From positions 800,001-864,000 of the forward strand of contig CBDBZU010000004.1 in the NCBI GenBank assembly GCA_965213625.1: a stretch of 64,000 nucleotides of DNA, read 5' to 3'. The position numbers and the translations under genes are program-made. The notes beneath the pieces are model-generated. The model did no database searches. It saw nothing but the letters and a program-made list of their open reading frames with translations, and had not been told where the DNA came from. This document shows positions 126 through 63,422 of the stretch, one piece after another. This DNA is from a bacterium. Its GTDB lineage: Bacteria > UBA8248. Position 1 is the first letter of the stretch; each line of letters starts with the position of its first letter.

Positions 126-929
126 ATGAAAACCGTATCCGTAAACGGAATCGATATCGCCTACCAGGAATCGGGGAGCGGGCCGCCGCTCCTGCTCCTG
201 CACGGCTTTTCGCTGGATCACACCATCTGGGCGCCGCAGGTGGAAGAGTTGCAAAGAAGCTACCGCGTCCTGGTTCCCGACATGCGCGGCATGGGGCGGA
301 CGCCGCACTCAGGCGGGCAAATCACGGTCTCGATGATGGCCGACGACATGGCCGCTTTCCTCGGCGCGCTCGACATCAGCGCCGCCGCCGTGGCGGGCTT
401 CTCGCTGGGAGGCTACATCCTGCTCCAGATGGTGCTCCGCCACCCGCTCAAGGTGCGCGCGTGCGGTTTCATCAGCACACGGGCGGCGGCGGATTCAGAA
501 GAGGGAAAAAAGGTGCGCTTACAGCACATGCAGACCGTCATCAACGAGGGGATGGCGGGCTTCGCCGGGCACTTCATCGAAAGCCTCTTCGCGCCCGCCT
601 ACATCGCCGCCCATCCGCTCGAAATCGAGGCTACGCAAAAGGTCGTGCTCTCCCAGATTCCCGACTACATCGCCTCGCTCATCGACGCGCTCAGGACGCG
701 TGAGGAACTGACGCCGCGCCTGGGCGAAATCGCCGTCCCCTGCCTGGTGTTCGGCGGGACGGGCGACGCGCTGGTGCCGCACGCGCAGATGACCGCTTTA
801 CACAAGGGGCTGAGCGATTCCGTCATCGAGTTGGTGGATGGCGCGGGCCACACGACGCCGTTCGAGTGCGCGGATCGGGTGAGCTCCCAGCTTGACCAGA
901 TGATGCAGCGCGCGGGCATGTGGTTGTAG
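126..929 (+). CDS. alpha/beta hydrolase (enol-lactonase-like)
   Basis: LLLHGF oxyanion motif, G-F-S-L-G-G nucleophile elbow, C-terminal GAGH; RBS GGGAG upstream. Confidence 0.85.
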   Translation: MKTVSVNGIDIAYQESGSGPPLLLLHGFSLDHTIWAPQVEELQRSYRVLVPDMRGMGRTPHSGGQITVSMMADDMAAFLGALDISAAAVAGFSLGGYILLQMVLRHPLKVRACGFISTRAAADSEEGKKVRLQHMQTVINEGMAGFAGHFIESLFAPAYIAAHPLEIEATQKVVLSQIPDYIASLIDALRTREELTPRLGEIAVPCLVFGGTGDALVPHAQMTALHKGLSDSVIELVDGAGHTTPFECADRVSSQLDQMMQRAGMWL

Positions 930-1300
930 GCTTGACGTAAGGGGTTGTTGGAAAAGCCTCTAACAACCAGGGAATGGATTACTCAATCGACATACGCTCA
1001 TGAAATGACTCCCCCTTGCAGAACACCAACTAATCTCTTGCCCTCTAGCAGCATTGCCAACCAACGAGAGAGAAAAAATCACTCCCCCCTTGAGGGGGAG
1101 TCGACGAGGTAAGGGCGCAAGCCCGCAAGCGAGTCGGTGGGGGGTCAAAACCGACCGTTGAGGAAGGTTTTGCGAACCGTTGATATCCTGCTCTGCAAGC
1201 AATCGCTCCCTTTCCGGTCGTGACCCCCCACCGATTCAGACTTCGCACAAATCGCTCGGCTTCATCGTTGGGCTTTCCCCTCGGGAAGCCCAACCCTCAA

Positions 1301-2820
1301 GGGTCTGTTGAAAAACCCGGTGTTGGAAGCGGGCGTTTTGGCGGCTCACGCGGCGGCGGGGAGGCAGCCCAATTGGCGCGTGAGGGCGCCATGTGCGCGC
1401 AGCCGGCGTCTCCGGGCGGCACAGGCCGTCCAGAGGGCGAATATACGCGCCGCAAAAGCGGCGGCCAGCCGCTTGAGGTTCACCGCTATCGCCGTCAGGT
1501 AGGACTGGATCCGCATGTTCGCAAGGCCCCGGCGCACCGCCCGCCCCAGTCCGTGCCGGCTCTTCGCCTCGCCGTGGTAGCCCTCCGAGCGCCAACGGTG
1601 GCGGCCATAGAGACGCTTCTCCTCCTCCCCCCAGCGCGCATGCCGCCGACGCGCGCGCAACAGCGCCGGATACGCGTGCGGAATCAACACCGTCCTGCTC
1701 GTGCGCGACTTCGACAGACAATCCGCACGGAGCGCGCAGCCCGCGCAATCCCGCGTCTTCGATACATAGGAGCGCCCCCGCTCCGTCGCCTGCCGGGGGC
1801 GCAGCGTCTTGCCTCCCGGACACTTCACCACCTCGTTGCGCGCGTCGTAGTGGAACAACTGCAGCGGAACACGGCTCTGGCTGGGTTCCTTCTTCGCTGG
1901 TATCAGCGCTTCCACGCCCCGCCGCTCCAATTCGCCATAAACCTTCGAGTACGCGTAGCCCGAATCCGCCGTCACCATCTCCGGCGCGCGGCCCGACAAC
2001 TCGCTTACCGCCTCTATATGGGACGCCATCATCTCACGCTCGTTCCGCGTCCCCTCCGTCACCGACACGTCGAGAACAACACCCCGCTCATCGTCCACCG
2101 CCGCGTGCTGCTTGTAGCTCGGCTCGAACCCCGCCCGCGCGCTCTTGCGCGCAAGCCGCGCGTCCGGGTCCGTCCGGCTCACCCGACCCCCGCCACCGCG
2201 GCCTCCTCCCTTCTTCTCCCCCTCATCATCGACGGGATTCTCCCGAATCACCTTCTCCGCGTGGTGCGCCGCCAGACTCTCCCAGCTCACGTCCGCGCGT
2301 ATCAACGAGGCGTCCACGTGCACCACTTCCCCCTTCGCCACATTCGCCTCCAGGCAAGCCTGCACCGTGCGACGGAATATCTCCTTGAACCGAGCCTCCC
2401 CCCACCGCTGACGAATCCGCGTCAGGCTCGAATGATGCGGCAAATCCTCGTGCAGCCCGTACCCGATGAACCACCGGATCGCCAGGTGCGCACGCGCCTC
2501 GCGAAGCAGACGCCGGTCGTGTACGTAGCCCAGCAACATACCCGCAAGCATCAAGCGGAGCGCCACCTCCGGGTCGATCCCCGGTCGACCATTGTCCGCG
2601 CAATAGCAATCCGCCACCTCCTCACGAAGCCAACTCAAATCCAGTACGCGGTCCACGCGCATCAGGACGTGATCCTCGGGGATCAGCCGATCCAGCGAAC
2701 CGGCCACGAACAAATCCATCTGCTCGCGCCTCTTGCTGCCTATCATCGAGGGAACTCCCATCTCGGGCGAGATAGTGTCATTACACCCAATCACAATGCC
2801 GGGGGTTTTTCAACAGCCCC
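1301..2820 (-). mobile_element. IS1182-family insertion sequence, copy 1
   Basis: TIRs GGGTCTGTTGAAAAACCC / GGGTTTTTCAACAGCCCC, CTCAA on both flanks (1296-1300, 2821-2825), single transposase ORF; four copies in the window. Confidence 0.9.
1346..2794 (-). CDS. IS1182-family DDE transposase
   Basis: N-terminal GRPGIDP...RWF (DUF772-like), D(AS)/ADSGY/E catalytic residues, Cys cluster CPGG...CxxCxLRxxC, NLKRL end; true start may be the second Met (MIGSK). Confidence 0.9.
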   Translation of the reverse strand: MIGCNDTISPEMGVPSMIGSKRREQMDLFVAGSLDRLIPEDHVLMRVDRVLDLSWLREEVADCYCADNGRPGIDPEVALRLMLAGMLLGYVHDRRLLREARAHLAIRWFIGYGLHEDLPHHSSLTRIRQRWGEARFKEIFRRTVQACLEANVAKGEVVHVDASLIRADVSWESLAAHHAEKVIRENPVDDEGEKKGGGRGGGGRVSRTDPDARLARKSARAGFEPSYKQHAAVDDERGVVLDVSVTEGTRNEREMMASHIEAVSELSGRAPEMVTADSGYAYSKVYGELERRGVEALIPAKKEPSQSRVPLQLFHYDARNEVVKCPGGKTLRPRQATERGRSYVSKTRDCAGCALRADCLSKSRTSRTVLIPHAYPALLRARRRHARWGEEEKRLYGRHRWRSEGYHGEAKSRHGLGRAVRRGLANMRIQSYLTAIAVNLKRLAAAFAARIFALWTACAARRRRLRAHGALTRQLGCLPAAA

Positions 2821-2951
2821 CTCAAGGGGGGAGTGTTTAGCTGGCGCTCTGCAAGGGGGGAGTGAAGCCTCCCCACTCCCGGTCGGCTACATACGCCGAA
2901 TCACGAATTCAGGGTTTTTCAACAACCCCTGTAAGGACAGGTCGCGACCAC

Positions 2952-2977
2952 GGACAGGCACGGGGGCCTGTCCCTAC
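2952..2977 (-). repeat. GTAG-type REP palindrome (GTAGGGACAGGCCCCCGTGCCTGTCC)
   Basis: Same sequence at 58413-58438 and a variant at 31141-31167; supplies the TAG stop of the IMPase gene. Confidence 0.7.
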
Positions 2978-3747
2978 TCCCAGAAAACCCTCTCCCTCAA
3001 CCAGTCGATCTGCGCTGCCGGTGCGGCGAGGATGGGTTCGGGTGCCCGGCGTCCGTCGGCCAGGGCGGCGTAGTCGATCGCAGCTCCCGAGAGGTAGGCC
3101 ACGCTTCCCCCCGCGCGCTCGTAGATGAGCGCAGCGGCGGCGAAGTCATAGGCGCGTATCGGCTCCATCAGCGTACCGAAGGCCGAGCCCGCCGCCGTCA
3201 GGCAGATGTGGCAGGCGGCGGACGCCAGCGCGAGAAAGCGTCCGGGGTATTGGTGCGAAAGACCCGCCACCTCGCCGCACGGGACGAAAAGATAATCGTG
3301 ATCGCCGGGAACCCCCTGCCCGACTTGCGCCAGCGGCGCGCCGTTCCTCATAGCAGTGCCCGTGGCCTCGGCTGTAAAAATCTGCCCCATCGCGGGCATG
3401 TGGACGACGCCCGCCACAACGCGCGAGCCCCTGAGACACGCGATGGAGACCGCCCAGAAGGGGAGTCCTTTGAGATAAGGCCCCGTGCCGTCGATGGGGT
3501 CTATCGCCCACCAGCGCGTATTGGGGCCGATATCCTCCGCGCCGCTCGCACCGCTTTCCTCCGCGAGGACGGGATCGTCGGGATACGCCGCGCGGATCTC
3601 CCCGATGATGATGCGCTCCACCTCCCGGTCGGCGCGCGAGACGATGCTGCGTCCTTTGGGTTCCGCCTCCACGTGGCCGAACAGCTCCATCGCGCGCGCG
3701 CCCGCCTTGCGCGCGGTCTCTTCGATGAACGAAACGAGGTCTGACAC
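2974..3747 (-). CDS. inositol monophosphatase family protein
   Basis: AEE and IDPIDGT motifs; GTG start after AGGAG RBS. Confidence 0.85.
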   Translation of the reverse strand: MSDLVSFIEETARKAGARAMELFGHVEAEPKGRSIVSRADREVERIIIGEIRAAYPDDPVLAEESGASGAEDIGPNTRWWAIDPIDGTGPYLKGLPFWAVSIACLRGSRVVAGVVHMPAMGQIFTAEATGTAMRNGAPLAQVGQGVPGDHDYLFVPCGEVAGLSHQYPGRFLALASAACHICLTAAGSAFGTLMEPIRAYDFAAAALIYERAGGSVAYLSGAAIDYAALADGRRAPEPILAAPAAQIDWLRERVFWE

Positions 3748-3948
3748 CGGGTTCTCCTGACTCTTATAGATTCGAATTGCGCGCATGATGGAGGAGGCTT
3801 GAACCCATGACAAGGCAGGGGCGGACGCCAAGGGATTCACTCGATCCGCAAGCCCGCTTCGAATCATCGACAAAAGGGGGATGAATTGCTAAAAGGTGGA
3901 AAATTTCGCTCGCTTCGCGGCAAGCCCACAGACACAGGAGACGCATCC

Positions 3949-4386
3949 ATGCCATTCGCCCGTACCCATCGACTCACCACCAAGGGGGCCAAGCTGATGA
4001 TGACGGCCGCCATCGCCAAGGCGGAAGAATTCGGCATCCCCGTCACCGTGGCCATCGCCGACGCGGGCGGACACCTCGTCCTACTCGAGCGCATGGACGG
4101 CGGGCGCTTCCACACCGTGCACTCATCCACCACCAAGGCGGTGTGTTCGGCCTCGAACAAGCGGCCCACCACCACGCAGGGCGCGCAGGCGCAGCATCTG
4201 GATACAGCCCATGCCCTGGGCCTGGCCCTGGCCGCAGGTCCCGAGCGGTGGACGGCGATGGAGGGCGGCTTCCCGATTCTTTATGAGGGCGAATGCCTGG
4301 GCGGCATCGGCGTGAGCGGGGGCGACTGGGAGCAGGATTTGGCCATCGCGCGGGTGGCCGTCGAGGCGGTGGGCGCTTCTTTTTAA
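3949..4386 (+). CDS. GlcG/HbpS family heme-binding protein
   Basis: VAIADAGG..LLERMDG, KA, GGFPI, GGIGVSGG...D motifs; AGGAG RBS. Confidence 0.85.
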   Translation: MPFARTHRLTTKGAKLMMTAAIAKAEEFGIPVTVAIADAGGHLVLLERMDGGRFHTVHSSTTKAVCSASNKRPTTTQGAQAQHLDTAHALGLALAAGPERWTAMEGGFPILYEGECLGGIGVSGGDWEQDLAIARVAVEAVGASF

Positions 4387-4493
4387 GTCCGGGGCGCGGA
4401 TTGAAGCGTACCCTGGCGCGACGAGCCTTCGCCATAACCCGCAAAAAACATTTTCCATCACTTGTATCGGCATCATAAGGAGTCATACAAAAA

Positions 4494-5507
4494 ATGAGCT
4501 CAAAACCCCTGAGGGTGGCCGCACTCGGCATGGGCTGGTGGTCGGATGTGCTGGCCGACGCCATCGGCAGAACCGACAAGATAGAGATCGCCGCCTGCTT
4601 CACGCGCTCGGAAGACAAGCGCGCGGCCTTCGCCGAAAAATACAATTGTGAGGCGGCCGCGAGCTACGAGGAAATTCTGGCGGATGACTCCATAGAGGCC
4701 ATCATCAACACCACGCCCAACCACGTTCACCTGGAAACCACGAAAGCGGCGGCGGAGGCGGGCAAGCACGTGTTTCTGGATAAGCCCATCGCCCACACCG
4801 TTGCCGACGGCAAGGCGCTCACCCGCGCGTGCGCGGAGGCGGGCATGGTGCTCGCCATCGGCTACCAGAGGCGGCGGGAGAACCATTTCCGCTGGATCAG
4901 GAACCAGATCGACGCGGGCGAATTCGGCAGGCTCGTCCAGGCGGAGTGCAACATCAGCAGGGACAGGGAGGGCCAGTTCGAACCCGGCCACTGGCGCTAC
5001 CAGTCAGACGCCATGCCGGGCGGCGTCATGCTCCAGATCGGCATCCACTACGCTGACGTGCTGACCTACCTCATGGGGCCGATAGTCGCCGTATCGGGCC
5101 GGACGGCGCAACTCGTCCTGCCCGGCGACAACCCCGACGTGGCGAACCTGATTCTCGAGCACGAATCGGGCGCCATTTCGAACCTGACGGCCAGCTACGC
5201 CTCGGCGTCGGAGTATTACCTCATGAACATTTACGGGAAAACGGCCACGGCCTACTACACGCTTTTTGACGGCCTGCGCGTCCTCTACCGGGGCGAGGAG
5301 GCGCCCCAGGCGGTGGCGTGCGAGAAGAACGACACCATCAGGGAAGAGCTCGATGAATTCGCGGACGCCGTTCGCGGAGGTGCTGCGCCCGAAATGGGGG
5401 GCGAGGACGCCGTGTCCTCTCTCGCCGTCATCCGCGCCGGCGTGCGCTCAGCCAAAGAGGGACGCCGGGTGGAAGTGTCCGAAATCCTCGATGACGCGAA
5501 CGAATAA
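4494..5507 (+). CDS. Gfo/Idh/MocA family oxidoreductase
   Basis: GxGxW Rossmann start, TTPNHVH, GKHVFLDKP, GIH. Confidence 0.9.
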   Translation: MSSKPLRVAALGMGWWSDVLADAIGRTDKIEIAACFTRSEDKRAAFAEKYNCEAAASYEEILADDSIEAIINTTPNHVHLETTKAAAEAGKHVFLDKPIAHTVADGKALTRACAEAGMVLAIGYQRRRENHFRWIRNQIDAGEFGRLVQAECNISRDREGQFEPGHWRYQSDAMPGGVMLQIGIHYADVLTYLMGPIVAVSGRTAQLVLPGDNPDVANLILEHESGAISNLTASYASASEYYLMNIYGKTATAYYTLFDGLRVLYRGEEAPQAVACEKNDTIREELDEFADAVRGGAAPEMGGEDAVSSLAVIRAGVRSAKEGRRVEVSEILDDANE

Positions 5508-5532
5508 ATCATAAAATCTTAAAGGAGAAACC

Positions 5533-6330
5533 ATGCCACGCATTCAAGCCGGTGATATACAGCTCAACTACGCGGAACGAGGAGAGGGGGAGGCGTTCCT
5601 GTTCATTCCCGGCCTCATGGGCCTTCTGGACGCCTGGGATTTCCAGATGCCCCATTTCTCGGAACGCTACCGCTGCATCACCTTCGACCACAGGGGCACG
5701 GGCGAGAGCGACAAGCCCAAGGACGCTTATTCCACGGACTTCATCGCGCAGGACGCGGTCGCCCTGCTCGATACGCTGGGAATCGAAAAAGCCCACGTGG
5801 CGGGCACATCAACCGGAGGCTGCATACTGCAGAACCTCGCGCTCGATTATCCCGACCGGATCAACTGCTGCGTATTCACCAACACATGGACGACGGCTGA
5901 CCCTTACATGACGCGCTTACAGACCTCGCGCAAGCAGATCGCCGAGGCCTACGGGCTGGAGGAATACATCAAGTTCAGCTCCTTGTGGACGTGCGGGTGG
6001 ACGCAGTTCCGGAACATGTACGAGAACCTGCTGGAACTCGAAGCCCGCCAGAAGGACACCATCGCGCCAGTCGATGTCATCACCGCGCGCCTCGACATGA
6101 CGCTCAGTCACGACAGGACGTCCGAGATTCAGAACATCGACAAGCCCGCGCTCATCATCGCCGCGAAAGACGACGCCCTCACCCCGCCGTACTTCGCCCA
6201 GGACCTGCAAAAGGCGATAGCGGGCTCGAAGCTCGTGATACTGGAAGAGGGAGGCCACTACAGCTACCGCCGCTCCCACACCGAATGGAACGCGGCCGTG
6301 GATGCGTTCCTGGCCGAAGCGGGCGGCTAG
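5533..6330 (+). CDS. alpha/beta hydrolase (RutD-like fold)
   Basis: DHRGTGES, GTSTGG nucleophile, GGH; AAGGAG RBS. Confidence 0.8.
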   Translation: MPRIQAGDIQLNYAERGEGEAFLFIPGLMGLLDAWDFQMPHFSERYRCITFDHRGTGESDKPKDAYSTDFIAQDAVALLDTLGIEKAHVAGTSTGGCILQNLALDYPDRINCCVFTNTWTTADPYMTRLQTSRKQIAEAYGLEEYIKFSSLWTCGWTQFRNMYENLLELEARQKDTIAPVDVITARLDMTLSHDRTSEIQNIDKPALIIAAKDDALTPPYFAQDLQKAIAGSKLVILEEGGHYSYRRSHTEWNAAVDAFLAEAGG

Positions 6331-6679
6331 AGGGTTGGTGAAAAACCTCTCCTCGCTCGGAATTCACCCCCATAGGCGTGGCTGCGGACTTCGCCCTTGA
6401 GATGAGAGCGAAAGAATTACTCCCCCCTTGAGGGGGAGTCGAAGAAGCCGAGCCTCCGGCGAAGGCTGATTCGGTGGGGGGAATGATTTTCGAATGCAGG
6501 TTTGTACTAAAGTAAAAGCTCCCCCCACCGACTCGCTTGCGGGCTTACGCCCTTACCTCGTCGACTCCCCCTCAAGGGGGGAGTGGTTGGTTTGCACTCT
6601 GCAAGAGTGAATGTTTTTCCTCACGTCCAGGTCGGCTCCATTCGCCGACTCACGAAACCGGGCTTTTTCAATAACCCCC
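6331..6679. mobile_element. MITE-like element (family A) carrying an empty REP doublet
   Basis: Ends AGGGTTGGTGAAAAAC / CTTTTTCAATAACCCC; flanks CTAG (6327-6330) and TTAG (6680-6683) contain the stop codons of the two convergent genes. Confidence 0.6.
6419..6584. repeat. uninterrupted REP doublet (empty IS target)
   Basis: Two inverted hairpins ACTCCCCC(C)-TTGA-GGGGGAGT and ACTCCCCC-TCAA-GGGGG(G)AGT with inner CGGTGGGGGG/CCCCCCACCG repeats. Confidence 0.85.
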
Positions 6680-9600
6680 TTAGGCTTCCTCTTCTTCTTG
6701 TTCAATGAGGTTGACGGCTTTCCGGGGTCTCACGCGATCAGACGGCGCGCCGCTGGCGCCGCTTGGTGCGGCGGCCGGTGCGGCGGCGAAGCTGGCCGGA
6801 CGTATAAGCGCCAGGAAATCCACCCACAACGAAAAGACGACCGGTATCAGCAGAAGCGTGAAGAGCGTGGACATGGCCAGACCGCCCAGGACGGCCGAGC
6901 CCAGCCCCCGGTAAAGCTCGCTGCCCGAGCCTGAGGAAACCACCAGAGGCAGCATGCCGAGTACGGTCGTCGTGGTCGTCATGAAGATGGGGCGCATCCT
7001 GTCGCGCGCGCTCTCGAGAATCGCTTCGCGCATGGGCAGACCCGCGCGGAAATGGTTCAGCGCCTGGTGGACGAGCAGGATCGCATTGTTCACCACGATG
7101 CCCGTCAGGATGATGAAGCCCAGCATGGTGAGCGTGTCCATCTTCACCGACGGTTCTATCGAGTTCATGAGGCTTACCATCAGCACGCCGCCCGTTGCGG
7201 CGAAGGGCACGCTGAACATGATGATGAACGGGTAGCTCCACGCTTCGAACAGGGCCGCCATCAACAAATAGGTGATCAGGAGCGCCAGCAGCAGCGACCA
7301 CTTGAGCGACGCCCAGGTCCGCTCCAGATCCTTCGCCCGCCCGCTCACACCCAGCGAATAGCCGAGCGGAAGCGTCTGGCGCATCGGTTCGATGACTTCT
7401 TTCTTCATCTTGTCGATCGCCACCTGAAGCGGCAGCTCGCTCCCGATGTTGACCGTGAGCGTCACGGAGCGGTCGCGGTCGATGTGCTCGACCTTCGTCG
7501 GCCCGAGCGCCGCCTGCACCCGGGCGATGTCTCCGAGCGAAACGACCTGCCCCTCGGGCGTGTGCAGCTTGAGTTCCTCGATCCGCTGCGTTTGGGTGAA
7601 ATCCGAAAGCGGTCCGCGCAGGATGATGTCGAGTTCCTCTCCGCGATCCCGGAAAATGCCCGCCTTGGTTCCGTTCACGAGCGTCTCCACGACGCTTCCG
7701 AGTTCCGCGACCGACACGCCGAAATCCGACGCCCTCTGACGATCCACATGCACCTGAAGCTCGGGATTTCCTAAATCAAAACTCGAATTGACAAATCGCA
7801 CGCCCCCGAGTCCGCGCGCCCTGGCGCCCACGTCGGATGCGACGCGCTGAATCTCGCTCAAACCGTCTCCCGTGATGTCGACCTTCAAGTTGATTCCGCC
7901 GATGAAGCCCGATCCGCGCCGCCGGAACAGGGGCGCCTGTGTGACGAACGTGCGCACCCCGGGCGTTCCCTGGAGGTCTTTGAACAATTTTTTGACGAGG
8001 CTCCGCATGGAGACGAGGTCGGAGTATTCCTTCTTGGCGATGATACCGACGATGGGGTTTTGCGTACGCACCACGGCGAAAAACCGGTCGATTTCCTTGG
8101 AGCGCTCAAGCTTCGCCTCCAGAACCTGCACGACCTTGTCCACCTCTTCGAGGTTCAGGCCCGCGGGCGTTCGCACGATCACGAACAGGAGATTGCGGTT
8201 GCCTTTCGGCAGATAGTCGATGGGCGGGAAGGACAGAGCCGCCACGGCGATGGCGCCCGCCGTGATCAGCGCTGCCACGAAGATGCGCCTCATCACCCCG
8301 CGCAGCAGCCAGCCCAGGGTGGCCACGTAGATTCGCCGGCAAAGCCTGCCCAGCGCATACACCCCCAGCATGCTGAAAAATCGATCCACCGGAGATCTTT
8401 TTCCAGCACCGCTCAGGATGCGCGAACTCAGCATGGGCACGACGGAGATCGACACGATGAGGGATAGCGCCACCGCCACGCTGATGGCGATGGCAATGTC
8501 GCGGAAGAGCTGTCCGGATTCGTCCTGCACGAACACCACGGGGACGAAGACGGCCAGCGTGGTGAGCGTGGAGGCCAGCACCGCTCCCCATACCTCTTGC
8601 GCGCCATCCACGGCGGCGTTCCACTTGCTCTTCCCCATCTCGCGGTGCCGGAAGATGTTCTCCAGCACCACGACGGAGTTGTCCACCACCATACCGACGG
8701 CGAACGCCATACCCGCGAGCGAGATGATGTTGATGGAGCGGCTCAGCACGAAGATGAAGATGAACGTGGAGACCACGGTAACCGGTATGGCGACGCCGAT
8801 GATCATGACGCTCGAAAGGCTGCCCAGGAACAGGAGCAGCACGCCTATCGCCAACGCGCCGCCAATGAATATGTTGTTGATCACGAGGGAACGGGACTGG
8901 TCGATGTAGACGGTCTCGTCATAGACCTGCTTGAGCCTGATGCCGCGCCCCGCATAGATTTCGTTGATCTCGGCGAGCGCCTTTTTGACCCCCGCCATCA
9001 CCTCGATGGTGTTGGCGCCGGTTTTTCGCAATGCTCCGAAAGCCAGGGTAGGCTTCCGCCGGACGCGAATCCGCCGCTGGAGGTCGCCGTAGCCGAAGGA
9101 AACCTTCGCGACGTCGCGCAGGTAGACGGCGCCGCTTCCGTTTTGCGCGATAATGGTGTTGCGCAGCTGATCGAGGCGCGTGAAATTCCCCACTGTGCGG
9201 ACCGAATAGCTGCGCTTGCCCTCGTCAATCTTCCCCGCCTTGGTGTTCTTGTTCTCTCGCTGTAATGCCGCCCTCAAGGCGGGTACCGTGATCCCGCGCG
9301 CGCTCATGGCCGCGTAATCGAGCGTGACGCGGACTTCCCTGTCTTGTCCGCCGAACATCCACACCTGGCCCACCCCCTCCACACGCTCGAGCTTGGGGCG
9401 GATGACGTTTTCCGCCTCGATGCGAACCTCGTTGATGGGGAGATCGGTCTCGACGACCATCCAGGCGATGGGGTTTTCCGCATCGGAGTTTAAAGCGTTG
9501 ACGGTGGAACGGTCCGAATCTTCGGGCAGGTTGCGCACGAGACCCAGCTTTTCCGAGACGTCGAGCCTGGCCACGTCCTTGTTCACGTCCCAGTCGAATT

Positions 9601-31078: not shown

Positions 31079-31167
31079 GTAGGGGCGGGCCTCTGTGCCC
31101 GCCCGCCCGGATATGTCCATTCCCGTGGTTGTGCTTCTCAGGGACAGGCACGGAGGCCTGTCCCGAC
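31079..31167. repeat. pair of GTAG-type REP palindromes
   Basis: GTAGGGGCGGGCCTCTGTGCCCGCCC and inverted GGGACAGGCACGGAGGCCTGTCCCGAC. Confidence 0.65.
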
Positions 31168-31375
31168 CAACTGCCTTGAAAATACCCTTGTTGACATGAA
31201 ATCACTCCCCCCTTGAGGGGGAGTCACAGAGACCGAGTCCTTTGGACGAAGGCCGATGTGGTGGGGGGTGAATCGTGTTTTATCCTGCAATTTCAATCAT
31301 ACCCCCCATCGATTCGCTTGCGGGTATGCACCCTTAGCTCACCGTCGGTCTTCCCCGAGGGAGACCGACCCTCAA

Positions 31376-32895
31376 GGGTCTGTTGAAAAACCCGGTGTTG
31401 GAAGCGGGCGTTTTGGCGGCTCACGCGGCGGTGGAGAGGCAGCCCAATCGGCGCGTGAGGGCGCCATGTGCGCTTAGACGGCGTCTCCGGGCGGCACAGG
31501 CCGTCCAGAGGGCGAATATACGCGCCGCAAAAGCGGCGGCCAGCCGCTTGAGGTTCACCGCTATCGCCGTCAGGTAGGACTGGATCCTCATGTTCGCAAG
31601 GCCCCGGCGCACCGCCCGCCCCAGTCCGTGCCGGCTCTTCGCCTCGCCGTGGTAGCCCTCCGAGCGCCAACGGTGGCGGCCATAGAGACGCTTCTCCTCC
31701 TCCCCCCAGCGCGCATGCCGCCGACGCGCGCGCAACAGCGCCGGATACGCGTGCGGAATCAACACCGTCCTGCTCGTGCGCGACTTCGACAGACAATCCG
31801 CACGGAGCGCGCAGCCCGCGCAATCCCGCGTCTTCGATACATAGGAGCGCCCCCGCTCCGTCGCCTGCCGGGGGCGCAGCGTCTTGCCTCCCGGACACTT
31901 CACCACCTCGTTGCGCGCGTCGTAGTGGAACAACTGCAGCGGAACACGGCTCTGGCTGGGTTCCTTCTTCGCTGGTATCAGCGCTTCCACGCCCCGCCGC
32001 TCCAATTCGCCATAAACCTTCGAGTACGCGTACCCCGAATCCGCCGTCACCATCTCCGGCGCGCGGCCCGACAACTCGCTTACCGCCTCTATATGGGACG
32101 CCATCATCTCACGCTCGTTCCGCGTCCCCTCCGTCACCGACACGTCGAGAACAACACCCCGCTCATCGTCCACCGCCGCGTGCTGCTTGTAGCTCGGCTC
32201 GAACCCCGCCCGCGCGCTCTTGCGCGCAAGCCGCGCGTCCGGGTCCGTCCGGCTCACCCGACCCCCGCCACCGCGGCCTCCTCCCTTCTTCTCCCCCTCA
32301 TCATCGACGGGATTCTCCCGAATCACCTTCTCCGCGTGGTGCGCCGCCAGACTCTCCCAGCTCACGTCCGCGCGTATCAACGAGGCGTCCACGTGCACCA
32401 CTTCCCCCTTCGCCACATTCGCCTCCAGGCAAGCCTGCACCGTGCGACGGAATATCTCCTTGAACCGAGCCTCCCCCCACCGCTGACGAATCCGCGTCAG
32501 GCTCGAATGATGCGGCAAATCCTCGTGCAGCCCGTACCCGATGAACCACCGGATCGCCAGGTGCGCACGCGCCTCGCGAAGCAGACGCCGGTCGTGTACG
32601 TAGCCCAGCAACATACCCGCCAGCATCAGGCGCAACGCCACCTCCGGGTCGATCCCCGGTCGACCGTTATCCGCGCAATAGCAATCCGCCACCTCCGCGC
32701 GAAGCCAACTCAAATCCAGTACGCGGTCCACGCGCATCAGGACGTGATCCTCGGGGATCAACCGTTCCAGCGAACCGGCCACGAACAAATCCATCTGCTC
32801 GCGCCCCTTGCTGCCTATCATCTCGGGAACTCCCATCTCGGGCGAGATAGTGTCATTACACCCAATCACAATGCCGGGGGTTTTTCAACAGCCCC
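31376..32895 (-). mobile_element. IS1182-family insertion sequence, copy 2
   Basis: Same TIRs, 1520 bp, CTCAA on both flanks (31371-31375, 32896-32900). Confidence 0.9.
31421..32869 (-). CDS. IS1182-family DDE transposase
   Basis: 482-aa ORF near-identical to 1346-2794. Confidence 0.9.
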   Translation of the reverse strand: MIGCNDTISPEMGVPEMIGSKGREQMDLFVAGSLERLIPEDHVLMRVDRVLDLSWLRAEVADCYCADNGRPGIDPEVALRLMLAGMLLGYVHDRRLLREARAHLAIRWFIGYGLHEDLPHHSSLTRIRQRWGEARFKEIFRRTVQACLEANVAKGEVVHVDASLIRADVSWESLAAHHAEKVIRENPVDDEGEKKGGGRGGGGRVSRTDPDARLARKSARAGFEPSYKQHAAVDDERGVVLDVSVTEGTRNEREMMASHIEAVSELSGRAPEMVTADSGYAYSKVYGELERRGVEALIPAKKEPSQSRVPLQLFHYDARNEVVKCPGGKTLRPRQATERGRSYVSKTRDCAGCALRADCLSKSRTSRTVLIPHAYPALLRARRRHARWGEEEKRLYGRHRWRSEGYHGEAKSRHGLGRAVRRGLANMRIQSYLTAIAVNLKRLAAAFAARIFALWTACAARRRRLSAHGALTRRLGCLSTAA

Positions 32896-37445: not shown

Positions 37446-37591
37446 GGGGGTGTTGAGAAAGCCCCCCTGAGGAGGGGCTGTTGCAAATGCCTCGCTTCGC
37501 TTGAGATTGACCTTCGCTTTTGCTCGTCATTCCGGCTTTCGCCGGAATGACGGTGGTTTTTCTGCATCGAGGGGCTTTTTCAAACAACCCC
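37446..37591. mobile_element. degenerate MITE-like element(s) with a central GTCATTCC palindrome
   Basis: TIR-like GGGGGTGTTGAGAAAG (37446), GGGGCTGTTGCAAATG (37474) and inverted CTTTTTCAAACAACCCC; palindrome at 37525-37552. Confidence 0.5.
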
Positions 37592-42520: not shown

Positions 42521-42824
42521 ACCAGGTTTACAACCAGAACGACGTGCGAGGTGAGGGCATGAAAGAGACGAAAAGGCAAAGTCAAAATGGATTACGTCGA
42601 ACCCTCATTCATCAATCGCGTTTGACCCGACCGAGGAGAGAGCAAGATTCACTCCCCCCTTGAGGGGGTCGGGCTTCCCGAGGGGAAAGCCCGACAGAAG
42701 CCGAGCGTTTTTTGCGAAGGCTGATGCGGTGGGGGGTGAATCGCGTTTTATCGCTACTCCGACTCATACCCCCCCACCGGCGCGACTTCGGGCTTCGCCC
42801 TCGTCTTGCCGACTCCCCCTCAAA

Positions 42825-44344
42825 GGGGCTGTTGAAAAAGCCCCGGCATTGTGATTGGGTGTAATGACACTATCTCGCCCGAGATGGGAGTTCCCTCGAT
42901 GATAGGCAGCAAGAGGCGCGAGCAGATGGATTTGTTCGTGGCCGGTTCGCTGGAACGGCTGATCCCCGAGGATCACGTCCTGATGCGCGTGGACCACGTA
43001 CTGGATTTGAGCTGGCTACGGGAGGAGGTGGCGGATTGCTATTGCGCGGATAACGGTCGTCCGGGGATCGACCCGGAGGTGGCGCTCCGCTTGATGCTGG
43101 CGGGTATGTTGCTGGGCTACGTTCACGACCGTCGCCTGCTTCGCGAGGCGCGTGCGCACCTGGCGATCCGGTGGTTCATCGGGTACGGGCTGCACGAGGA
43201 GTTGCCGCATCATTCGAGCCTGACGCGGATACGTCAGCGCTGGGGGGAGGCACGGTTCAAGGAGATATTCCGTCGCACGGTGCAGGCTTGCCTGGAGGCG
43301 AATGTGGCGAAGGGGGAAGTGGTGCACGTGGACGCCTCGTTGATACGCGCGGACGTGAGCTGGGAGAGCCTGGCGGCGCACCACGCGGAGAAGGTGATTC
43401 AGGAGAATCCCGTCGATGATGAGGTCGGGAAGAAGGGAGGAGGCCGCGGTGGCGGGGGTCCGGTGAGCCGGACGGACCCGGACGCGCGGCTTGCGCGCAA
43501 GAGCGCGCGGGCGGGGTTCGAGCCGAGCTACAAGCAGCACGCGGCGGTGGACGATGAGCGGGGTGTTGTTCTCGACGTGTCGGTGACGGAGGGGACGCGG
43601 AACGAGCGTGAGATGATGGCGTCCCATATAGAGGCGGTAAGCGAGTTGTCGGGCCGCACGCCGGAGATGGTGACGGCGGATTCGGGGTACGCGTACTCGA
43701 AGGTTTACGGCGAATTGGAGCGGCGGGGCGTGGAAGCGCTGATACCAGCGAAGAAGGAACCCAGCCAGAGCCGTGTTCCGCTGCAGTTGTTCCACTACGA
43801 CGCGCGCAACGAGGTGGTGAAGTGTCCGGGAGGCAAGACGCTGCGCCCCCGGCAGGCGACGGAGCGGGGGCGCTCCTATGTATCGAAGACGCGGGATTGC
43901 GCGGGCTGCGCGCTCAGGCCCGATTGTCTGTCGAAGTCGCGCACGAGCAGGACGGTGTTGATTCCGCACGCGTATCCGGCGCTGTTGCGCGCGCGTCGGC
44001 GGCATGCGCGCTGGGGGGAGGAGGAGAAGCGTCTCTATGGCCGCCACCGTTGGCGCTCGGAGGGCTACCACGGCGAGGCGAAGAGCCGGCACGGACTGGG
44101 GCGGGCGGTGCGCCGGGGCCTTGCGAACATGCGGATCCAGTCCTACCTGACGGCGATAGCGGTGAACCTCAAGCGGCTGGCCGCCGCTTTTGCGGCGCGT
44201 ATATTCGCCTTGTGGACGGCCTGTGCCGCCCGGAGACGCCGGCTGCGCGCACATGGCGCCCTCACGCGCCGATTGGGCTGCCTCCCCGCCGCCGCGTGAG
44301 CCGCCAAAACGCCCGCTTCCAACACCGGGTTTTTCAACAGACCC
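42825..44344 (+). mobile_element. IS1182-family insertion sequence, copy 3
   Basis: GGGGCTGTTGAAAAAGCCC...GGGTTTTTCAACAGACCC; flanks CTCAA+A and CTCAA. Confidence 0.9.
42851..44299 (+). CDS. IS1182-family DDE transposase
   Basis: 482-aa ORF, near-identical to the other copies. Confidence 0.9.
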   Translation: MIGCNDTISPEMGVPSMIGSKRREQMDLFVAGSLERLIPEDHVLMRVDHVLDLSWLREEVADCYCADNGRPGIDPEVALRLMLAGMLLGYVHDRRLLREARAHLAIRWFIGYGLHEELPHHSSLTRIRQRWGEARFKEIFRRTVQACLEANVAKGEVVHVDASLIRADVSWESLAAHHAEKVIQENPVDDEVGKKGGGRGGGGPVSRTDPDARLARKSARAGFEPSYKQHAAVDDERGVVLDVSVTEGTRNEREMMASHIEAVSELSGRTPEMVTADSGYAYSKVYGELERRGVEALIPAKKEPSQSRVPLQLFHYDARNEVVKCPGGKTLRPRQATERGRSYVSKTRDCAGCALRPDCLSKSRTSRTVLIPHAYPALLRARRRHARWGEEEKRLYGRHRWRSEGYHGEAKSRHGLGRAVRRGLANMRIQSYLTAIAVNLKRLAAAFAARIFALWTACAARRRRLRAHGALTRRLGCLPAAA

Positions 44345-54556: not shown

Positions 54557-56076
54557 GGGTCTGTTGAAAAACCCGGTGTTGGAAGCGGGCGTTTTGGCGG
54601 CTCACGCGGCGGCGGGGAGGCAGCCCAATCGGCGCGTGAGGGCGCCATGTGCGCGCAGCCGGCGTCTCCGGGCGGCACAGGCCGTCCACAAGGCGAATAT
54701 ACGCGCCGCAAAAGCGGCGGCCAGCCGCTTGAGGTTCACCGCTATCGCCGTCAGGTAGGACTGGATCCGCATGTTCGCAAGGCCCCGGCGCACCGCCCGC
54801 CCCAGTCCGTGCCGGCTCTTCGCCTCGCCGTGGTAGCCCTCCGAGCGCCAACGGTGGCGGCCATAGAGACGCTTCTCCTCCTCCCCCCAGCGCGCATGCC
54901 ACCGACGCGCGCGCAACAGCGCCGGATACGCGTGCGGAATCAACACCGTCCTGCTCGTGCGCGACTTCGACAGACAATCGGGCCTGAGCGCGCAGCCCGC
55001 GCAATCCCGCGTCTTCGATACATAGGAGCGCCCCCGCTCCGTCGCCTGCCGGGGGCGCAGCGTCTTGCCTCCCGGACACTTCACCACCTCGTTGCGCGCG
55101 TCGTAGTGGAACAACTGCAGCGGAACACGGCTCTGGCTGGGTTCCTTCTTCGCTGGTATCAGCGCTTCCACGCCCCGCCGCTCCAATTCGCCATAAACCT
55201 TCGAGTACGCGTACCCCGAATCCGCCGTCACCATCTCCGGCGTGCGGCCCGACAACTCGCTTACCGCCTCTATATGGGACGCCATCATCTCACGCTCGTT
55301 CCGCGTCCCCTCCGTCACCGACACGTCGAGAACAACACCCCGCTCATCGTCCACCGCCGCGTGCTGCTTGTAGCTCGGCTCGAACCCCGCCCGCGCGCTC
55401 TTGCGCGCAAGCCGCGCGTCCGGGTCCGTCCGGCTCACCGGACCCCCGCCACCGCGGCCTCCTCCCTTCTTCCCGACCTCATCATCGACGGGATTCTCCT
55501 GAATCACCTTCTCCGCGTGGTGCGCCGCCAGGCTCTCCCAGCTCACGTCCGCGCGTATCAACGAGGCGTCCACGTGCACCACTTCCCCCTTCGCCACATT
55601 CGCCTCCAGGCAAGCCTGCACCGTGCGACGGAATATCTCCTTGAACCGTGCCTCCCCCCAGCGCTGACGTATCCGCGTCAGGCTCGAATGATGCGGCAAC
55701 TCCTCGTGCAGCCCGTACCCGATGAACCACCGGATCGCCAGGTGCGCACGCGCCTCGCGAAGCAGGCGACGGTCGTGAACGTAGCCCAGCAACATACCCG
55801 CCAGCATCAAGCGGAGCGCCACCTCCGGGTCGATCCCCGGACGACCGTTATCCGCGCAATAGCAATCCGCCACCTCCTCCCGTAGCCAGCTCAAATCCAG
55901 TACGTGGTCCACGCGCATCAGGACGTGATCCTCGGGGATCAGCCGTTCCAGCGAACCGGCCACGAACAAATCCATCTGCTCGCGCCTCTTGCTGCCTATC
56001 ATCGAGGGAACTCCCATCTCGGGCGAGATAGTGTCATTACACCCAATCACAATGCCGGGGCTTTTTCAACAGCCCC
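54557..56076 (-). mobile_element. IS1182-family insertion sequence, copy 4
   Basis: Same TIRs; flanks TTGAG and T+TTGAG. Confidence 0.9.
54602..56050 (-). CDS. IS1182-family DDE transposase
   Basis: 482 aa; differs from copy 3 by an R to W change (RRWH). Confidence 0.9.
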   Translation of the reverse strand: MIGCNDTISPEMGVPSMIGSKRREQMDLFVAGSLERLIPEDHVLMRVDHVLDLSWLREEVADCYCADNGRPGIDPEVALRLMLAGMLLGYVHDRRLLREARAHLAIRWFIGYGLHEELPHHSSLTRIRQRWGEARFKEIFRRTVQACLEANVAKGEVVHVDASLIRADVSWESLAAHHAEKVIQENPVDDEVGKKGGGRGGGGPVSRTDPDARLARKSARAGFEPSYKQHAAVDDERGVVLDVSVTEGTRNEREMMASHIEAVSELSGRTPEMVTADSGYAYSKVYGELERRGVEALIPAKKEPSQSRVPLQLFHYDARNEVVKCPGGKTLRPRQATERGRSYVSKTRDCAGCALRPDCLSKSRTSRTVLIPHAYPALLRARRWHARWGEEEKRLYGRHRWRSEGYHGEAKSRHGLGRAVRRGLANMRIQSYLTAIAVNLKRLAAAFAARIFALWTACAARRRRLRAHGALTRRLGCLPAAA

Positions 56077-56342
56077 TTTGAGGGGGAGTCGGCAAGACGA
56101 GGGCGAAGCCCGAAGTCGCGCCGGTGGGGGGGTATGAGTCGGAGTAGCGATAAAACGCGATTCACCCCCCACCGAGTCAGCCTTCACCTGTCGGTTCGGC
56201 TTCCTCGACTCCCCCTCAAGGGGGGAGTGATTTCTTTTCAACGAGGGTATTTTCAAGGCAGCTAATCTGTAGGATTTTTTCAACAACCCCGCATGCGACC
56301 CCTACAACAAGAACGGCTCTCTACGAGACGGTACGTTTTGTT

Positions 56343-56479
56343 CGTCATTCCGGCGAAAGCCGGAATCCATTTACAGGTGCGGGAGAATAAACGACGGCGT
56401 TTCAATCCCCACCGATGCGCGGGAACCCTGATATAAAGCAAAAGGCGTAAAATGGATTCCGGCTTTCGCCGGAATGACG
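56343..56479. repeat. GTCATTCCGGC-type REP doublet
   Basis: CGTCATTCCGGCGAAAGCCGGAATCC ... GGATTCCGGCTTTCGCCGGAATGACG; single-palindrome forms at 37525-37552 and 58346-58373. Confidence 0.75.
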
Positions 56480-58279: not shown

Positions 58280-58620
58280 CGGAGTGGCGGGTAGCTCAGG
58301 AGGTCGGACGGACTGCGCGGGAAAAAGAGGGAAAGCGGTTTTGTTCGTCATTCCGGCGAAAGTCGGAATGACGGGGAGTAATATCGATTGAAGGGGAGGG
58401 AATTCCTCGTTAGGACAGGCACGGGGGCCTGTCCCTACGTTTAACAAACCCGAAGGATGTGATTCACTCCCCCTCAAGGAGGAGCTGTTACGTTACGCGT
58501 CTCAAGGGGAATATTGCTTACTGAGGATTGGAGAAAAGTAGACTCTATTCGTAGCGCGCGACCCGCCTAATCTGTGTTCCCGCCGCTTTCGCATGTCGAC
58601 TTATACGCGCCATTCCCTCC

Positions 58621-61288: not shown

Positions 61289-62323
61289 GTGAGCGCATCT
61301 CCGGTGGATGAATTCGAGTATTTCTTCGATAAAGCCTGGTCGGACGGCCTGCCGGTCATCCCCCCGACGGAAGAGCGCATGGGCCTCATGCTGGCGGGGA
61401 CGGGCCGCGACCCGGATGAAGTCATCGGCGATGTGCCCCCATTGCTGGCGCAGGCTGACGTTCGGACCATCGCAGTTCATGCCGTCATGGCCGGATGCAA
61501 ACCGGCGTATATGCCCGTCCTCATCGGAGCCGTGGAAGCCATTCTGGAGGAAAAATTCAACGTGGGCGGCGTGCAGGCGACGCTCTCCTGCGCGGCTCCC
61601 CTGCTGATCGTGAACGGCCCTTACGCCAGGGATATCGGCCTGCACGGCGGGCTGGGCTGCTTCGGCCCCGGAAACAGGGCGAACGCGACGATTGGCCGCG
61701 CCATCAGGCTACTGCTCCTCAACATAGGCGGCGGAATTCCGGGCATCACCTCGATGAGCACGTTCTCGCAACCGGGCAGGTTCACGTATTGCATCGCCGA
61801 GAATGAAGCGGAAAGCCCCTGGGAGTCTCACGCTCAGACGAATGGTTTCGATGCGCAGGACAACGTCGTCACGGCCGTGCATGTGGAAGGCCCCGTCATG
61901 TCCTGGGATGACGTGAGCGACGACCCGGAATGCATGTTGCCCTCCATCGCGGACACCATGTCGCATCTGGGTTCGTGGAACTGCTGGGCCAGCACCGATT
62001 TGGTGGTGGCGATGAGCCCGCAGCAGGCCGCGATTTGCGCAAAGAGGGGGTATTCAAAGGCGGATGTCCATGGGCGTCTTTGCGAAATCGCAGGCCGTAC
62101 GGTGGGCGAACTCAAAACGGGCGGGCATTTCCGGGAAAATCGCATCAGGGATTTTCCGATCCCCGTCGATCTGGATGATGACGATGCGTTCGTTCCGACG
62201 ATTAAAGAGGCCCGGAGACTGCTCTTGATCGTGGCGGGCGGAATTCCGGGGCCGATGACGGCCGTGATGCATGGCTGGAACGGCAGTAGCCGCTCGGTTT
62301 CCCGCGCATTTCAATCGTCATGA
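61289..62323 (+). CDS. uncharacterised 'WSDGLP' family protein, paralog 1
   Basis: WSDGLPVIPPT, HAVMAGC, IVNGP, GCFGPG.RANATIGRA; GTG start after GGAGG. Confidence 0.75.
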   Translation: MSASPVDEFEYFFDKAWSDGLPVIPPTEERMGLMLAGTGRDPDEVIGDVPPLLAQADVRTIAVHAVMAGCKPAYMPVLIGAVEAILEEKFNVGGVQATLSCAAPLLIVNGPYARDIGLHGGLGCFGPGNRANATIGRAIRLLLLNIGGGIPGITSMSTFSQPGRFTYCIAENEAESPWESHAQTNGFDAQDNVVTAVHVEGPVMSWDDVSDDPECMLPSIADTMSHLGSWNCWASTDLVVAMSPQQAAICAKRGYSKADVHGRLCEIAGRTVGELKTGGHFRENRIRDFPIPVDLDDDDAFVPTIKEARRLLLIVAGGIPGPMTAVMHGWNGSSRSVSRAFQSS

Positions 62324-62346
62324 TATCCACTTCTTTCAATGGGTGA

Positions 62347-63381
62347 ATGGCTTTGAGTGAACTTCAGGATGAATTCGAGTTTTTCCTCGAGAAACCCTGG
62401 TCGGACGGATTGCCCGTCGTCACCCCGACCGAAGAACGCATCGAGCGTATGCTCTCGGGCACGAAGAAAAGTCCGACTGAATTCATAGGCCTGGTACCTC
62501 CCGCCATGGGTGAGGCAACGGTCCATAACGTGGCGGTTCATGCGGTTATGGCCGGCTGTAAACCCGAGTACCTGCCGGTCGTTCTCGGCGCCACTTCGCT
62601 TATGCTTCGCGATGAATTCAACACGAACGGCGTGCAGGGCACGATGCACGGCGTGGCGCCCCTCATGATTGTAAACGGCCCCTATTCCGAGCAAATCGGG
62701 GTTCACGGAGGAAATGGCTGCTTTGGCCCCGGATTCAGGTCCAACGCTTCCATTGGCCGTGCCATTCGCCTGATTTTAATGAACCTCGGCGGGGGTATTC
62801 CGGGTGTTTCTTCGATGACGATTTTCGGCACGCCGCTGCGCTATACCGCGTGCGTAACGGAGAACCTTCAGTTTCATCCCTGGGAGACGCTCGCTGAATC
62901 CAGAGGATACGGATCGGATGAAAATGTAATCACCATGGCCATGGTGGAAAGCCCGCGCCTGACCTTCGATGACGTCAGCGAGGAGCCCGAGCGCCTGCTC
63001 CGGGGAATCGCCGATGCGATGACGGGCCTGGGCTCCTGGAACATGCACGCTCCCAGGACCGATATGGTTGTCGCCATGAATCCCCAGCATGCGAAAATTT
63101 GCTCCGAGGGCGGCCTCACGCGGGCGGACGTGCATCGGCGATTGTGTGAGCTGGCCGGCCACAAAGTGAAGGAGTTGAAAGGAGGCGGCAACTGGCGTCG
63201 CGAGCGCGCGCTGGATATGTATATTCATGTGGACCCCGATGATGATGAGTTTTTTGTTCCCGTCATCAAGGACCCCCGTGATCTGCATTTGATTGTCGCG
63301 GGCGGCTGGGGTTCGGGCAGCGCGGTATGCCATGGGTGGAGCGGCGGCAGCCGGGCCGTTCATGGGGCCTATGAGGTTTAG
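62347..63381 (+). CDS. uncharacterised 'WSDGLP' family protein, paralog 2
   Basis: Same motifs over the full length as paralog 1. Confidence 0.75.
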   Translation: MALSELQDEFEFFLEKPWSDGLPVVTPTEERIERMLSGTKKSPTEFIGLVPPAMGEATVHNVAVHAVMAGCKPEYLPVVLGATSLMLRDEFNTNGVQGTMHGVAPLMIVNGPYSEQIGVHGGNGCFGPGFRSNASIGRAIRLILMNLGGGIPGVSSMTIFGTPLRYTACVTENLQFHPWETLAESRGYGSDENVITMAMVESPRLTFDDVSEEPERLLRGIADAMTGLGSWNMHAPRTDMVVAMNPQHAKICSEGGLTRADVHRRLCELAGHKVKELKGGGNWRRERALDMYIHVDPDDDEFFVPVIKDPRDLHLIVAGGWGSGSAVCHGWSGGSRAVHGAYEV

Positions 63382-63422
63382 CGCCGGAATCTCCACGACA
63401 GTCAGAGTGGTAACAGATCCCT

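Follow-up and report, generated by a model that had tools for sequence, protein, structure and literature searches.

Hairpin-targeting IS1182-family insertion sequence nested in miniature elements with IS-like ends in a bacterium of the UBA8248 lineage

In a 64-kb stretch of a bacterial genome from the UBA8248 lineage (hereafter the window; contig CBDBZU010000004.1, positions 800,001 to 864,000, assembly GCA_965213625.1), an insertion sequence (IS) of the IS1182 family is found inside short, gene-less elements with IS-like ends. [quoted passage not shown] The IS and the gene-less MITE population have a common terminal repeat, GGGGYTGTTGAAAAA. One MITE family (~260-460 bp, a long palindrome) has a body of two inverted ~75-nt units, each with a GC-rich hairpin, ACTCCCCC-TCAAG-GGGGGAGT, and a second family carries pairs of CCCCCC-TTGTCA-GGGGGG hairpins. 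The transposase would integrate at the centre of such C-run/loop/G-run palindromes, with cuts staggered by 5 bp, so that CTCAA is duplicated. Because the target palindromes are mostly MITE-borne here, both the IS and more MITEs would accumulate within existing MITEs, in intergenic DNA. Two elements near the start of the window, A and B, would be old MITE insertions, and the IS in element A a later nested insertion. The genome (G000) has 4.15 Mb in four contigs, and coordinates are positions within the window unless preceded by C4.

The anatomy of both elements was read directly from the sequence. Element A (941-2929, no strand assigned; 464 bp without the nested IS) begins with GGGGTTGTTGGAAAAG (941-956) and ends with TTTTTCAACAACCCC (2915-2929). 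Its inward-facing terminal inverted repeats, weight-matrix matches at 941-962 on the plus strand and 2908-2929 on the minus strand, score 28.4 and 30.5 bits and bound a hairpin doublet. Element B (6331-6678, 348 bp) runs from AGGGTTGGTGAAAAAC (6331-6346) to TTTTTCAATAACCCC (6664-6678), with terminal inverted repeats at 6331-6352 (plus strand, 18.1 bits) and 6657-6678 (minus strand, 28.2 bits), and occupies the gap between two convergent open reading frames (ORFs). The flanks are cGTAA (936-940) and tGTAA (2930-2934) for A, and CTAG (6327-6330) and TTAG (6680-6683) for B; taken as target duplications, they match at 4/5 bases in A and at 3/5 in B. An earlier reading of the window from the sequence alone (the sequence-only reading) had noticed the IS-like ends of both elements and a similarity of their right ends. 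Both observations hold, as the right ends align at 76.9% over 117 nt, and the two elements belong to a large MITE population.

Each element contains an inverted pair of ~75-nt units (A: 1070-1300 and 2821-2845; B: 6408-6596). At the start of every unit is the hairpin ACTCCCCCC-TTGA-GGGGGAGT; next come another stem-loop, which is variable, and a GGTGGGGGG block. In element A, the doublet at 1070-1300, recognised by the nhmmer doublet model in the IS-excised genome, comprises the left unit (hairpin 1081-1101), a spacer, and the right unit as far as the point where the IS entered. The 1520-bp IS (1301-2820) cuts the right-hand hairpin in two, with CTCAA on either side (1296-1300 and 2821-2825), and the remainder of the interrupted hairpin lies at 2821-2845, as indicated by flank reading and the doublet model. 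In element B both hairpins are intact (6419-6439 and 6564-6584), and as single-stranded DNA the element folds into one long hairpin (-85.7 kcal/mol, z = -7.4), which none of 100 shuffled sequences matched. In the ORF list, A and B are overlapped only by short chance open frames, and an Rfam scan of positions 800-7000 (E up to 1) returned one chance-level match, none on either element. In some units (window 1267-1296 and 42666-42695, C4:3727683, and others) one hairpin arm is replaced by an extra ~28-nt palindrome, GTCGGGCTTCCCGAGGGGAAAGCCCGAC, which may be an even smaller nested insert or a variant arm.

The IS in element A lies on the minus strand, has the ends GGGTCTGTTGAAAAACCC and GGGGCTGTTGAAAAACCC, and is one of 32 full 1520-bp copies in the genome (33 blast matches longer than 1 kb). 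The family assignment is a direct observation: its transposase (ORF 1346-2794, minus strand, 482 amino acids) matches the NCBIfam IS1182-family profile NF033551 with 362.5 bits (cut-off 270, E = 3.7e-108), stays below the cut-offs of the IS5 and IS4 profiles, and exceeds the Pfam cut-offs for an N-terminal DUF772 (PF05598), DDE_Tnp_1_6 (PF13751) and DDE_Tnp_1 (PF01609). Three further copies in the window, at 31376-32895 (copy 2; minus strand, as deduced from its blast alignment to the first copy), 42825-44344 (copy 3; plus strand) and 54557-56076 (copy 4; minus strand), are all located in doublet hairpins, and at copy 4 terminal repeats bound the doublet on both sides.

The copies fall into two subfamilies, a main one that is 95.6-100% identical to the window copy and a second one at ~88%. 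Six full copies of the latter (C4 positions 589109, 751998, 1127377, 1262926, 2942654 and 3560914), every one in a TCAA hairpin, have the same sequence across all 1520 bases. This speaks for a very recent burst and hence for a second recently active subfamily. We considered the in-frame TGA of these six copies as a sign of mobilisation in trans, and rejected it, since the stop trims only the last 9 residues and the copies are 100% identical. A tblastn search found no other lineage of IS1182-family transposases in the genome.

Perfect 5-bp direct repeats flank 22 of the 32 IS copies, and the duplication length is fixed at 5 by cases outside hairpins such as GCCTT, TGTAA and GACGA. At the remaining ten copies the flanks do not match. 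These include three CTCAA/TTGAG hybrids and one TTGAG/CTCAA hybrid, which suggests inversions or deletions through recombination between IS copies; similar hybrids, mixing two hairpin types, were also seen in congeners.

The target rule emerges directly from a by-eye reading of the IS flanks. The IS is inserted in the loop of the hairpin ACTCCCCC-TCAAG-GGGGGAGT in 24 of 32 copies, and in a second hairpin, CCCCCC-TTGTCA/TGACAA-GGGGGG, in five, for one of these on one side only. One copy is in another C6-N5-G5 palindrome and two are elsewhere, so that C-run/loop/G-run palindromes hold 30/32 copies in total. The duplicated bases CTCAA are identical in both IS orientations. A strict regular expression, applied after in-silico excision, restored the exact hairpin at only 16 + 4 sites, because the flanks disagree at ten of the 32 copies. 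No IS insertion was found in four further families of palindromic repeats, which have 114, 59, 11 and 31 copies in the genome; the preference is therefore for C-run/loop/G-run palindromes, and not for any palindrome. The rule extends to relatives, as all 20 IS copies sampled from five congeners (~85% DNA identity) are in these two hairpin types. The transposase probably recognises the hairpin as such, either as a structure or as a sequence. A further idea, in which the target would resemble IS tips that abut, every insertion would remake it and tandem tip-to-tip pile-ups would form, was unsupported: tail-to-head terminal-repeat pairs within 200 bp number six, with a 5-bp spacer in one.

That these hairpins are mostly parts of MITEs is indicated by their surroundings. 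Doublets were searched with an iterated nhmmer model on the genome after in-silico excision of the 32 IS copies, and ends with a 22-nt weight matrix (consensus GGGGTTGTTGAAAAAGCCCTTT) at >=12 bits genome-wide, or >=10 bits within a reach of 250 bp around doublets. Among the 56 full palindromic doublets, inward-facing ends were found on both sides of 23, on one side of 20 and on neither side of 13, compared with 0.3%, 2.35% and 97.3% of random positions. Thus, 43/56 doublets have at least one inward terminal-repeat-like end within 250 bp, against ~2.7% expected. This is a lower bound, because two doublets scored as bare (window ~31000 and C4:3726309) carry degenerate ends that were missed by the matrix and became visible against relatives. 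Strict 15-mer matching under-detects the ends even more (both sides 18, one side 22, neither 16). For the second hairpin type (n = 37), at least one inward end was found at 30 and both ends at 14, and the four occupied by an IS all have ends on both sides. In all, 19/56 doublets are occupied by an IS. The genome-wide co-occurrence of terminal repeats and doublets, proposed as a check by the sequence-only reading, is hence substantiated, as is its claim that the autonomous IS inserts into MITE-borne hairpins.

The arrangement of the ends also bears on an alternative, in which separate IS or MITE insertions and deletions in repeat-rich intergenic DNA left behind the IS-like ends around doublets, and A and B are not single elements. 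The mismatched flanks at ten of the 32 IS copies are in line with such a history. Remnants in doublet hairpins, however, should face outward and abut half hairpins, whereas inward ends outnumber outward ones by 33:3 to the left of the doublets and by 33:5 to their right. Furthermore, the gap between terminal repeat and doublet recurs, most often with 51-53 nt, and several doublet copies have a conserved linker that connects the terminal repeat to the unit, and both observations speak against leftovers.

The terminal repeat itself is abundant. The 15-mer GGGNYTGTTGAAAAA occurs 307 times with up to one mismatch and 462 times with up to two, versus 0 and 34 times in a block-shuffled genome, and the weight matrix at >=12 bits matches the IS-excised genome 416 times versus 11 times after shuffling. 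There are 100 adjacent inward-facing end pairs at distances of 60-700 bp: 21 enclose a doublet, with a median length of 330 bp, and the other 79, without doublet, have a median of 225 bp. In the clustering, 20 doublet elements form a single family, and the simple elements without doublet form several, with 12, 11, 4, 4, 3 ... members, plus 28 singletons. The MITE consensus end, GGGGTTGTTGAAAAAG, is inside the range of the IS ends across the genus. Of the 416 ends not belonging to an IS, 20 and 11 abut half hairpins of the two types, compared with 0.03% and 0.006% of random positions, from which it follows that the MITEs have the same target preference as the IS. The outer flanks of these ends are C-rich at -12 to -6. 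Shared ends, a shared target preference and a single transposase lineage in the genome suggest that the IS transposase moves the MITEs.

Related genomes give a view of the same sites in other states. Congeners are syntenic around the window at ~75-95% DNA identity, and the insertion polymorphism among them could be observed directly. Site B is empty (GGYTAG|TC, the two genes abut) in six congeners (G008, G013, G002, G010, G006 and G004); in G014 the site is occupied, flanked by TTAG left and right, and the interior is a different one. Site A is empty in G006 and G010. In G003 the orthologous MITE is present with its doublet intact and without the IS, and in G004 it has perfect CGTAA on both flanks and another MITE nested in its left hairpin. 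The sequence-only reading had described the flanks of A and B as a 4-nt repeat plus one extra base, with the geometry of the IS copies. This repeat is probably a 5-bp duplication with one mismatch, as the perfect IS duplications and the G004 flanks indicate. At the G032 orthologue of IS copy 2, the same doublet has an intact hairpin, no IS and a single CTCAA. Further doublet sites are empty in some congeners (window ~31000, C4:2245528, C4:2248845 and C4:3726309), and empty orthologous sites, which the sequence-only reading had suggested to look for in relatives, were thus found for both elements and beyond.

The same comparisons reveal how quickly these regions change. Even G000 and G032, with ~95% identity in the adjacent genes, differ at site 3, and intergenic repeat clusters turn over fast. 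At the C4:2248845 site in G032, the right end of the inner element abuts the right half hairpin, and the outer left end is kept. This arrangement, with a nested element fused to an outer left end, would be expected if the ends of a nested pair, which are direct repeats, had recombined with each other, and offers a putative route to mosaic ends. Both the turnover and the G032 fusion speak for the separate-leftovers explanation. That sites A and B have or lack the element as a whole, with a short direct repeat, speaks against it, and in combination with the inward orientation and the regular spacing makes it very unlikely in our view.

Some results weigh against the reading of the doublets as bodies of MITEs that are related to the IS. 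Terminal repeats were not detected at 13/56 doublets, and four orthologous sites bounded by terminal repeats hold different interiors in different species. Among the filled-versus-empty pairs examined, there was none in which a doublet MITE had come in whole and with a perfect duplication. Doublet MITEs have weak target duplications: with a one-base shift allowed, at least 4/5 bases match in 7/21 (perfect in 2/21), versus 35/79 for simple MITEs and 14.8% in the control, which fits old elements. The ends of the doublet MITEs are mosaic and common to different simple MITE families. On the supporting side, one set of 17/23 genomes of the genus has all three of the transposase, the hairpin 19-mer and the end 15-mer (both as exact matches), and the six others have none of the three. 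This co-occurrence is not independent evidence, since DNA identity places the six genomes that lack the system further away than the others, and it counts as one or two events, not as 23 observations. Some of the genomes (e.g. G016 and G003) have more than 100 hairpins and ends and only fragments of the transposase; their fragmented assemblies may have lost IS copies.

As a separate observation, the interiors at orthologous sites with similar bounding repeats differ between loci L003, L110, L111, L123 and L127 on the one hand, and the window and L113 on the other, as if cassettes had been swapped inside fixed ends.

Several of these results could also be explained if the doublets were an independent mobile or recombining repeat, tied to the terminal repeats only secondarily, either by inserting into MITEs or by MITE ends landing around them. 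Such a repeat would resemble a REPIN, a pair of inverted repetitive extragenic palindromes (REPs) that forms a long hairpin and is present in tens to hundreds of copies per genome, according to the accessible part of its description (PMC3116915). The doublets do have this inverted pairing of palindromic units in all 56 cases, 20 of them have a terminal repeat on one side only in addition to the 13 with none detected, they form a single 20-copy family whose ends nevertheless match several simple MITE families, and interiors vary between species at the same bounded site. The doublet units, however, begin with ACTCCCC and lack the GTAG head of REPs. The only Y1-transposase-like ORF in the genome, candidate for a REP-associated tyrosine transposase (RAYT), has 177 amino acids and a weak PF01797 match of 22.3 bits (27.5 with neighbouring matches; cut-off 23). 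It is located at C4:1978566-1979099 on the minus strand (1453-1986 of locus L011) and is flanked by GTAG-headed palindromes, GTAGGGACAGG...CCTGTCCCTAC and GTAGGGGTCGCATATATGCGACCCCTAC, not by doublets. The RAYT-like gene and the GTAG-headed palindromes are a separate REP system of the same genome. A REPIN/RAYT origin of the doublets was therefore rejected, and the sequence-only reading, which had called them REPs, was mistaken in the RAYT sense of the word. An independent REPIN-like repeat is also at odds with the inward orientation of the terminal repeats (33:3 and 33:5), with the conserved linker, with the degenerate repeats at two seemingly bare doublets, and with the finding of the doublet motif only in genomes where terminal repeat and transposase are present too. 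We consider this explanation unlikely, and retain the reading in which the doublets are the bodies of MITEs.

Copies of a GTAG-type REP, GGACAGGCACGGGGGCCTGTCCCTAC, were noticed beside or inside MITE nests at window 2952-2990, 31142-31180 and 58413-58451, and number 114 genome-wide by pattern.

One congener (L053-L066, L088, L091-L095; ~74% amino acid identity) has its IS in the loop of a different hairpin, CAAACGC...GCGTTTG, which looks like an apparent switch of target specificity inside the genus. An end motif within 350 bp is missing at 13 of the 18 IS copies that use this hairpin, whereas at least one is present at 30/37 IS copies in the genomes with C-run/G-run hairpins. On contigs of Alphaproteobacteria and unclassified metagenome-assembled genomes, related elements with 57-66% amino acid identity have the end GGGGCTGTTGAAAAAG and 5-bp duplications, and several are located at the centres of unrelated palindromes; an end motif was found within 350 bp at 0/10 of these loci. 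Because the congener variant is mostly outside MITEs, and none of the ten distant loci is near such motifs, insertion at palindrome centres looks like a general trait of these elements, and nesting in their own MITEs like a lineage-specific outcome, following where the preferred palindrome is MITE-borne.

Comparison with known systems shows which parts of this picture have precedents. IS1272/TnSha1, of the IS1182 family, are described in the accessible text of two papers as elements that integrate, in either orientation, into hairpins or inverted repeats of DNA and hit the same hairpin repeatedly (PMC4923244; PMC5678879). Palindrome targeting by some IS1182 members goes back to Siguier et al. 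2015, as cited in the available part of PMC4923244. The IS studied here resembles them in its transposase family, as judged by profile, and in its integration into hairpins. For IS1272, the same two sources, as far as accessible, report a blunt cut of the stem, the deletion of part of the hairpin, no target duplication and no primary-sequence consensus (PMC4923244; PMC5678879). Here, in contrast, the IS enters at the centre of the loop, a 5-bp duplication results and the hairpin is conserved, the targets have a sequence preference (30/32 in C-run/loop/G-run palindromes, none in four other families), and they are located within cognate MITEs. ISPse1 of Paracoccus is listed as an IS1182-family member with a 4-bp direct repeat in the portion seen of PMC3281130.

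The REP-targeting elements are less closely related in mechanism. IS1397 belongs to the IS3 family. IS621 and ISPpu9 are members of the IS110 family, and all three differ from the IS described here in transposase family and chemistry; their targets are host REPs tied to a RAYT, without the IS's own terminal repeats. What they have in common with it is the specific insertion into abundant intergenic palindromic repeats, which are presented as harmless landing sites in the accessible sections of PMC3184786 and PMC12288879. The likeness to REPIN-RAYT systems lies in the multicopy, inverted doublet that forms a long hairpin; the doublets here differ by having no GTAG head and no flanking RAYT gene, and most copies are bounded by DDE-type terminal inverted repeats. 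Classical bacterial MITEs such as Nezha and Chunjie are characterised, in the part of PMC3184786 available, as short and non-coding, with IS-like terminal repeats, short direct repeats, a stable fold, and filled versus empty sites in related species. The MITEs in our genome resemble them in these traits, with direct repeats that are weakly preserved, and differ in that their body consists of hairpins preferred by the parent IS and by sister MITEs, so that nesting is frequent.

The sequence-only reading knew of no description of this architecture. Hairpin targeting by IS1182 members is already published (PMC4923244; PMC5678879, in the sections accessible). Loop-centred insertion with a duplication, the C-run/G-run preference, and targets built into cognate MITEs are what differs here. 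No paper on MITEs with a built-in target that their parent IS prefers was found in a literature coverage that lacked most subscription journals and supplements, so that its absence is unproven; in a term search, the text available of a 2024 review of prokaryotic MITEs did not contain the words "nested" or "hairpin" (PMC10969869).

A more far-reaching possibility is that of a self-reinforcing loop. With MITE bodies made of the transposase's target hairpins, the spread of MITEs would multiply harmless, sequence-specific landing pads, and recombination between nested ends would swap interiors. We put this forward tentatively and regard it as rather doubtful. If it is true, intergenic nests should evolve fast, the IS could be maintained in many copies while doing genes little harm, and target specificity could shift between variants within a genus. 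The sequence-only reading describes the architecture correctly apart from the name REP. Its causal claim, according to which the element seeds its own targets, fits the pattern and is unproven; the congener with the other hairpin suggests an emergent outcome rather than a fixed strategy.

If landing pads borne by MITEs lower the cost of transposition, they would offer a concrete mechanism for a long coexistence of IS and host, and would explain the rapid intergenic turnover seen here. On how DDE transposases of the IS1182 family find hairpins, the genus provides a rich natural data set: 32 IS copies that follow a one-position target rule, two target-carrying MITE families, 17 congeneric genomes in different states, and an IS variant with another hairpin. 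For annotators, such nests should be expected, and REP-like doublets in these genomes are parts of MITEs.

Two other repeats of the window deserve mention. A palindromic repeat family, CGTCATTCCGGCGAAAGCCGGAATGACG, is present at 37515-37574, 56335-56479 and 58336-58395, with 59 copies genome-wide by pattern and zero IS insertions. At 61306-63944, three tandem, diverged repeats with a period of ~1060 bp and 64-80% identity look like three paralogous genes in a row.

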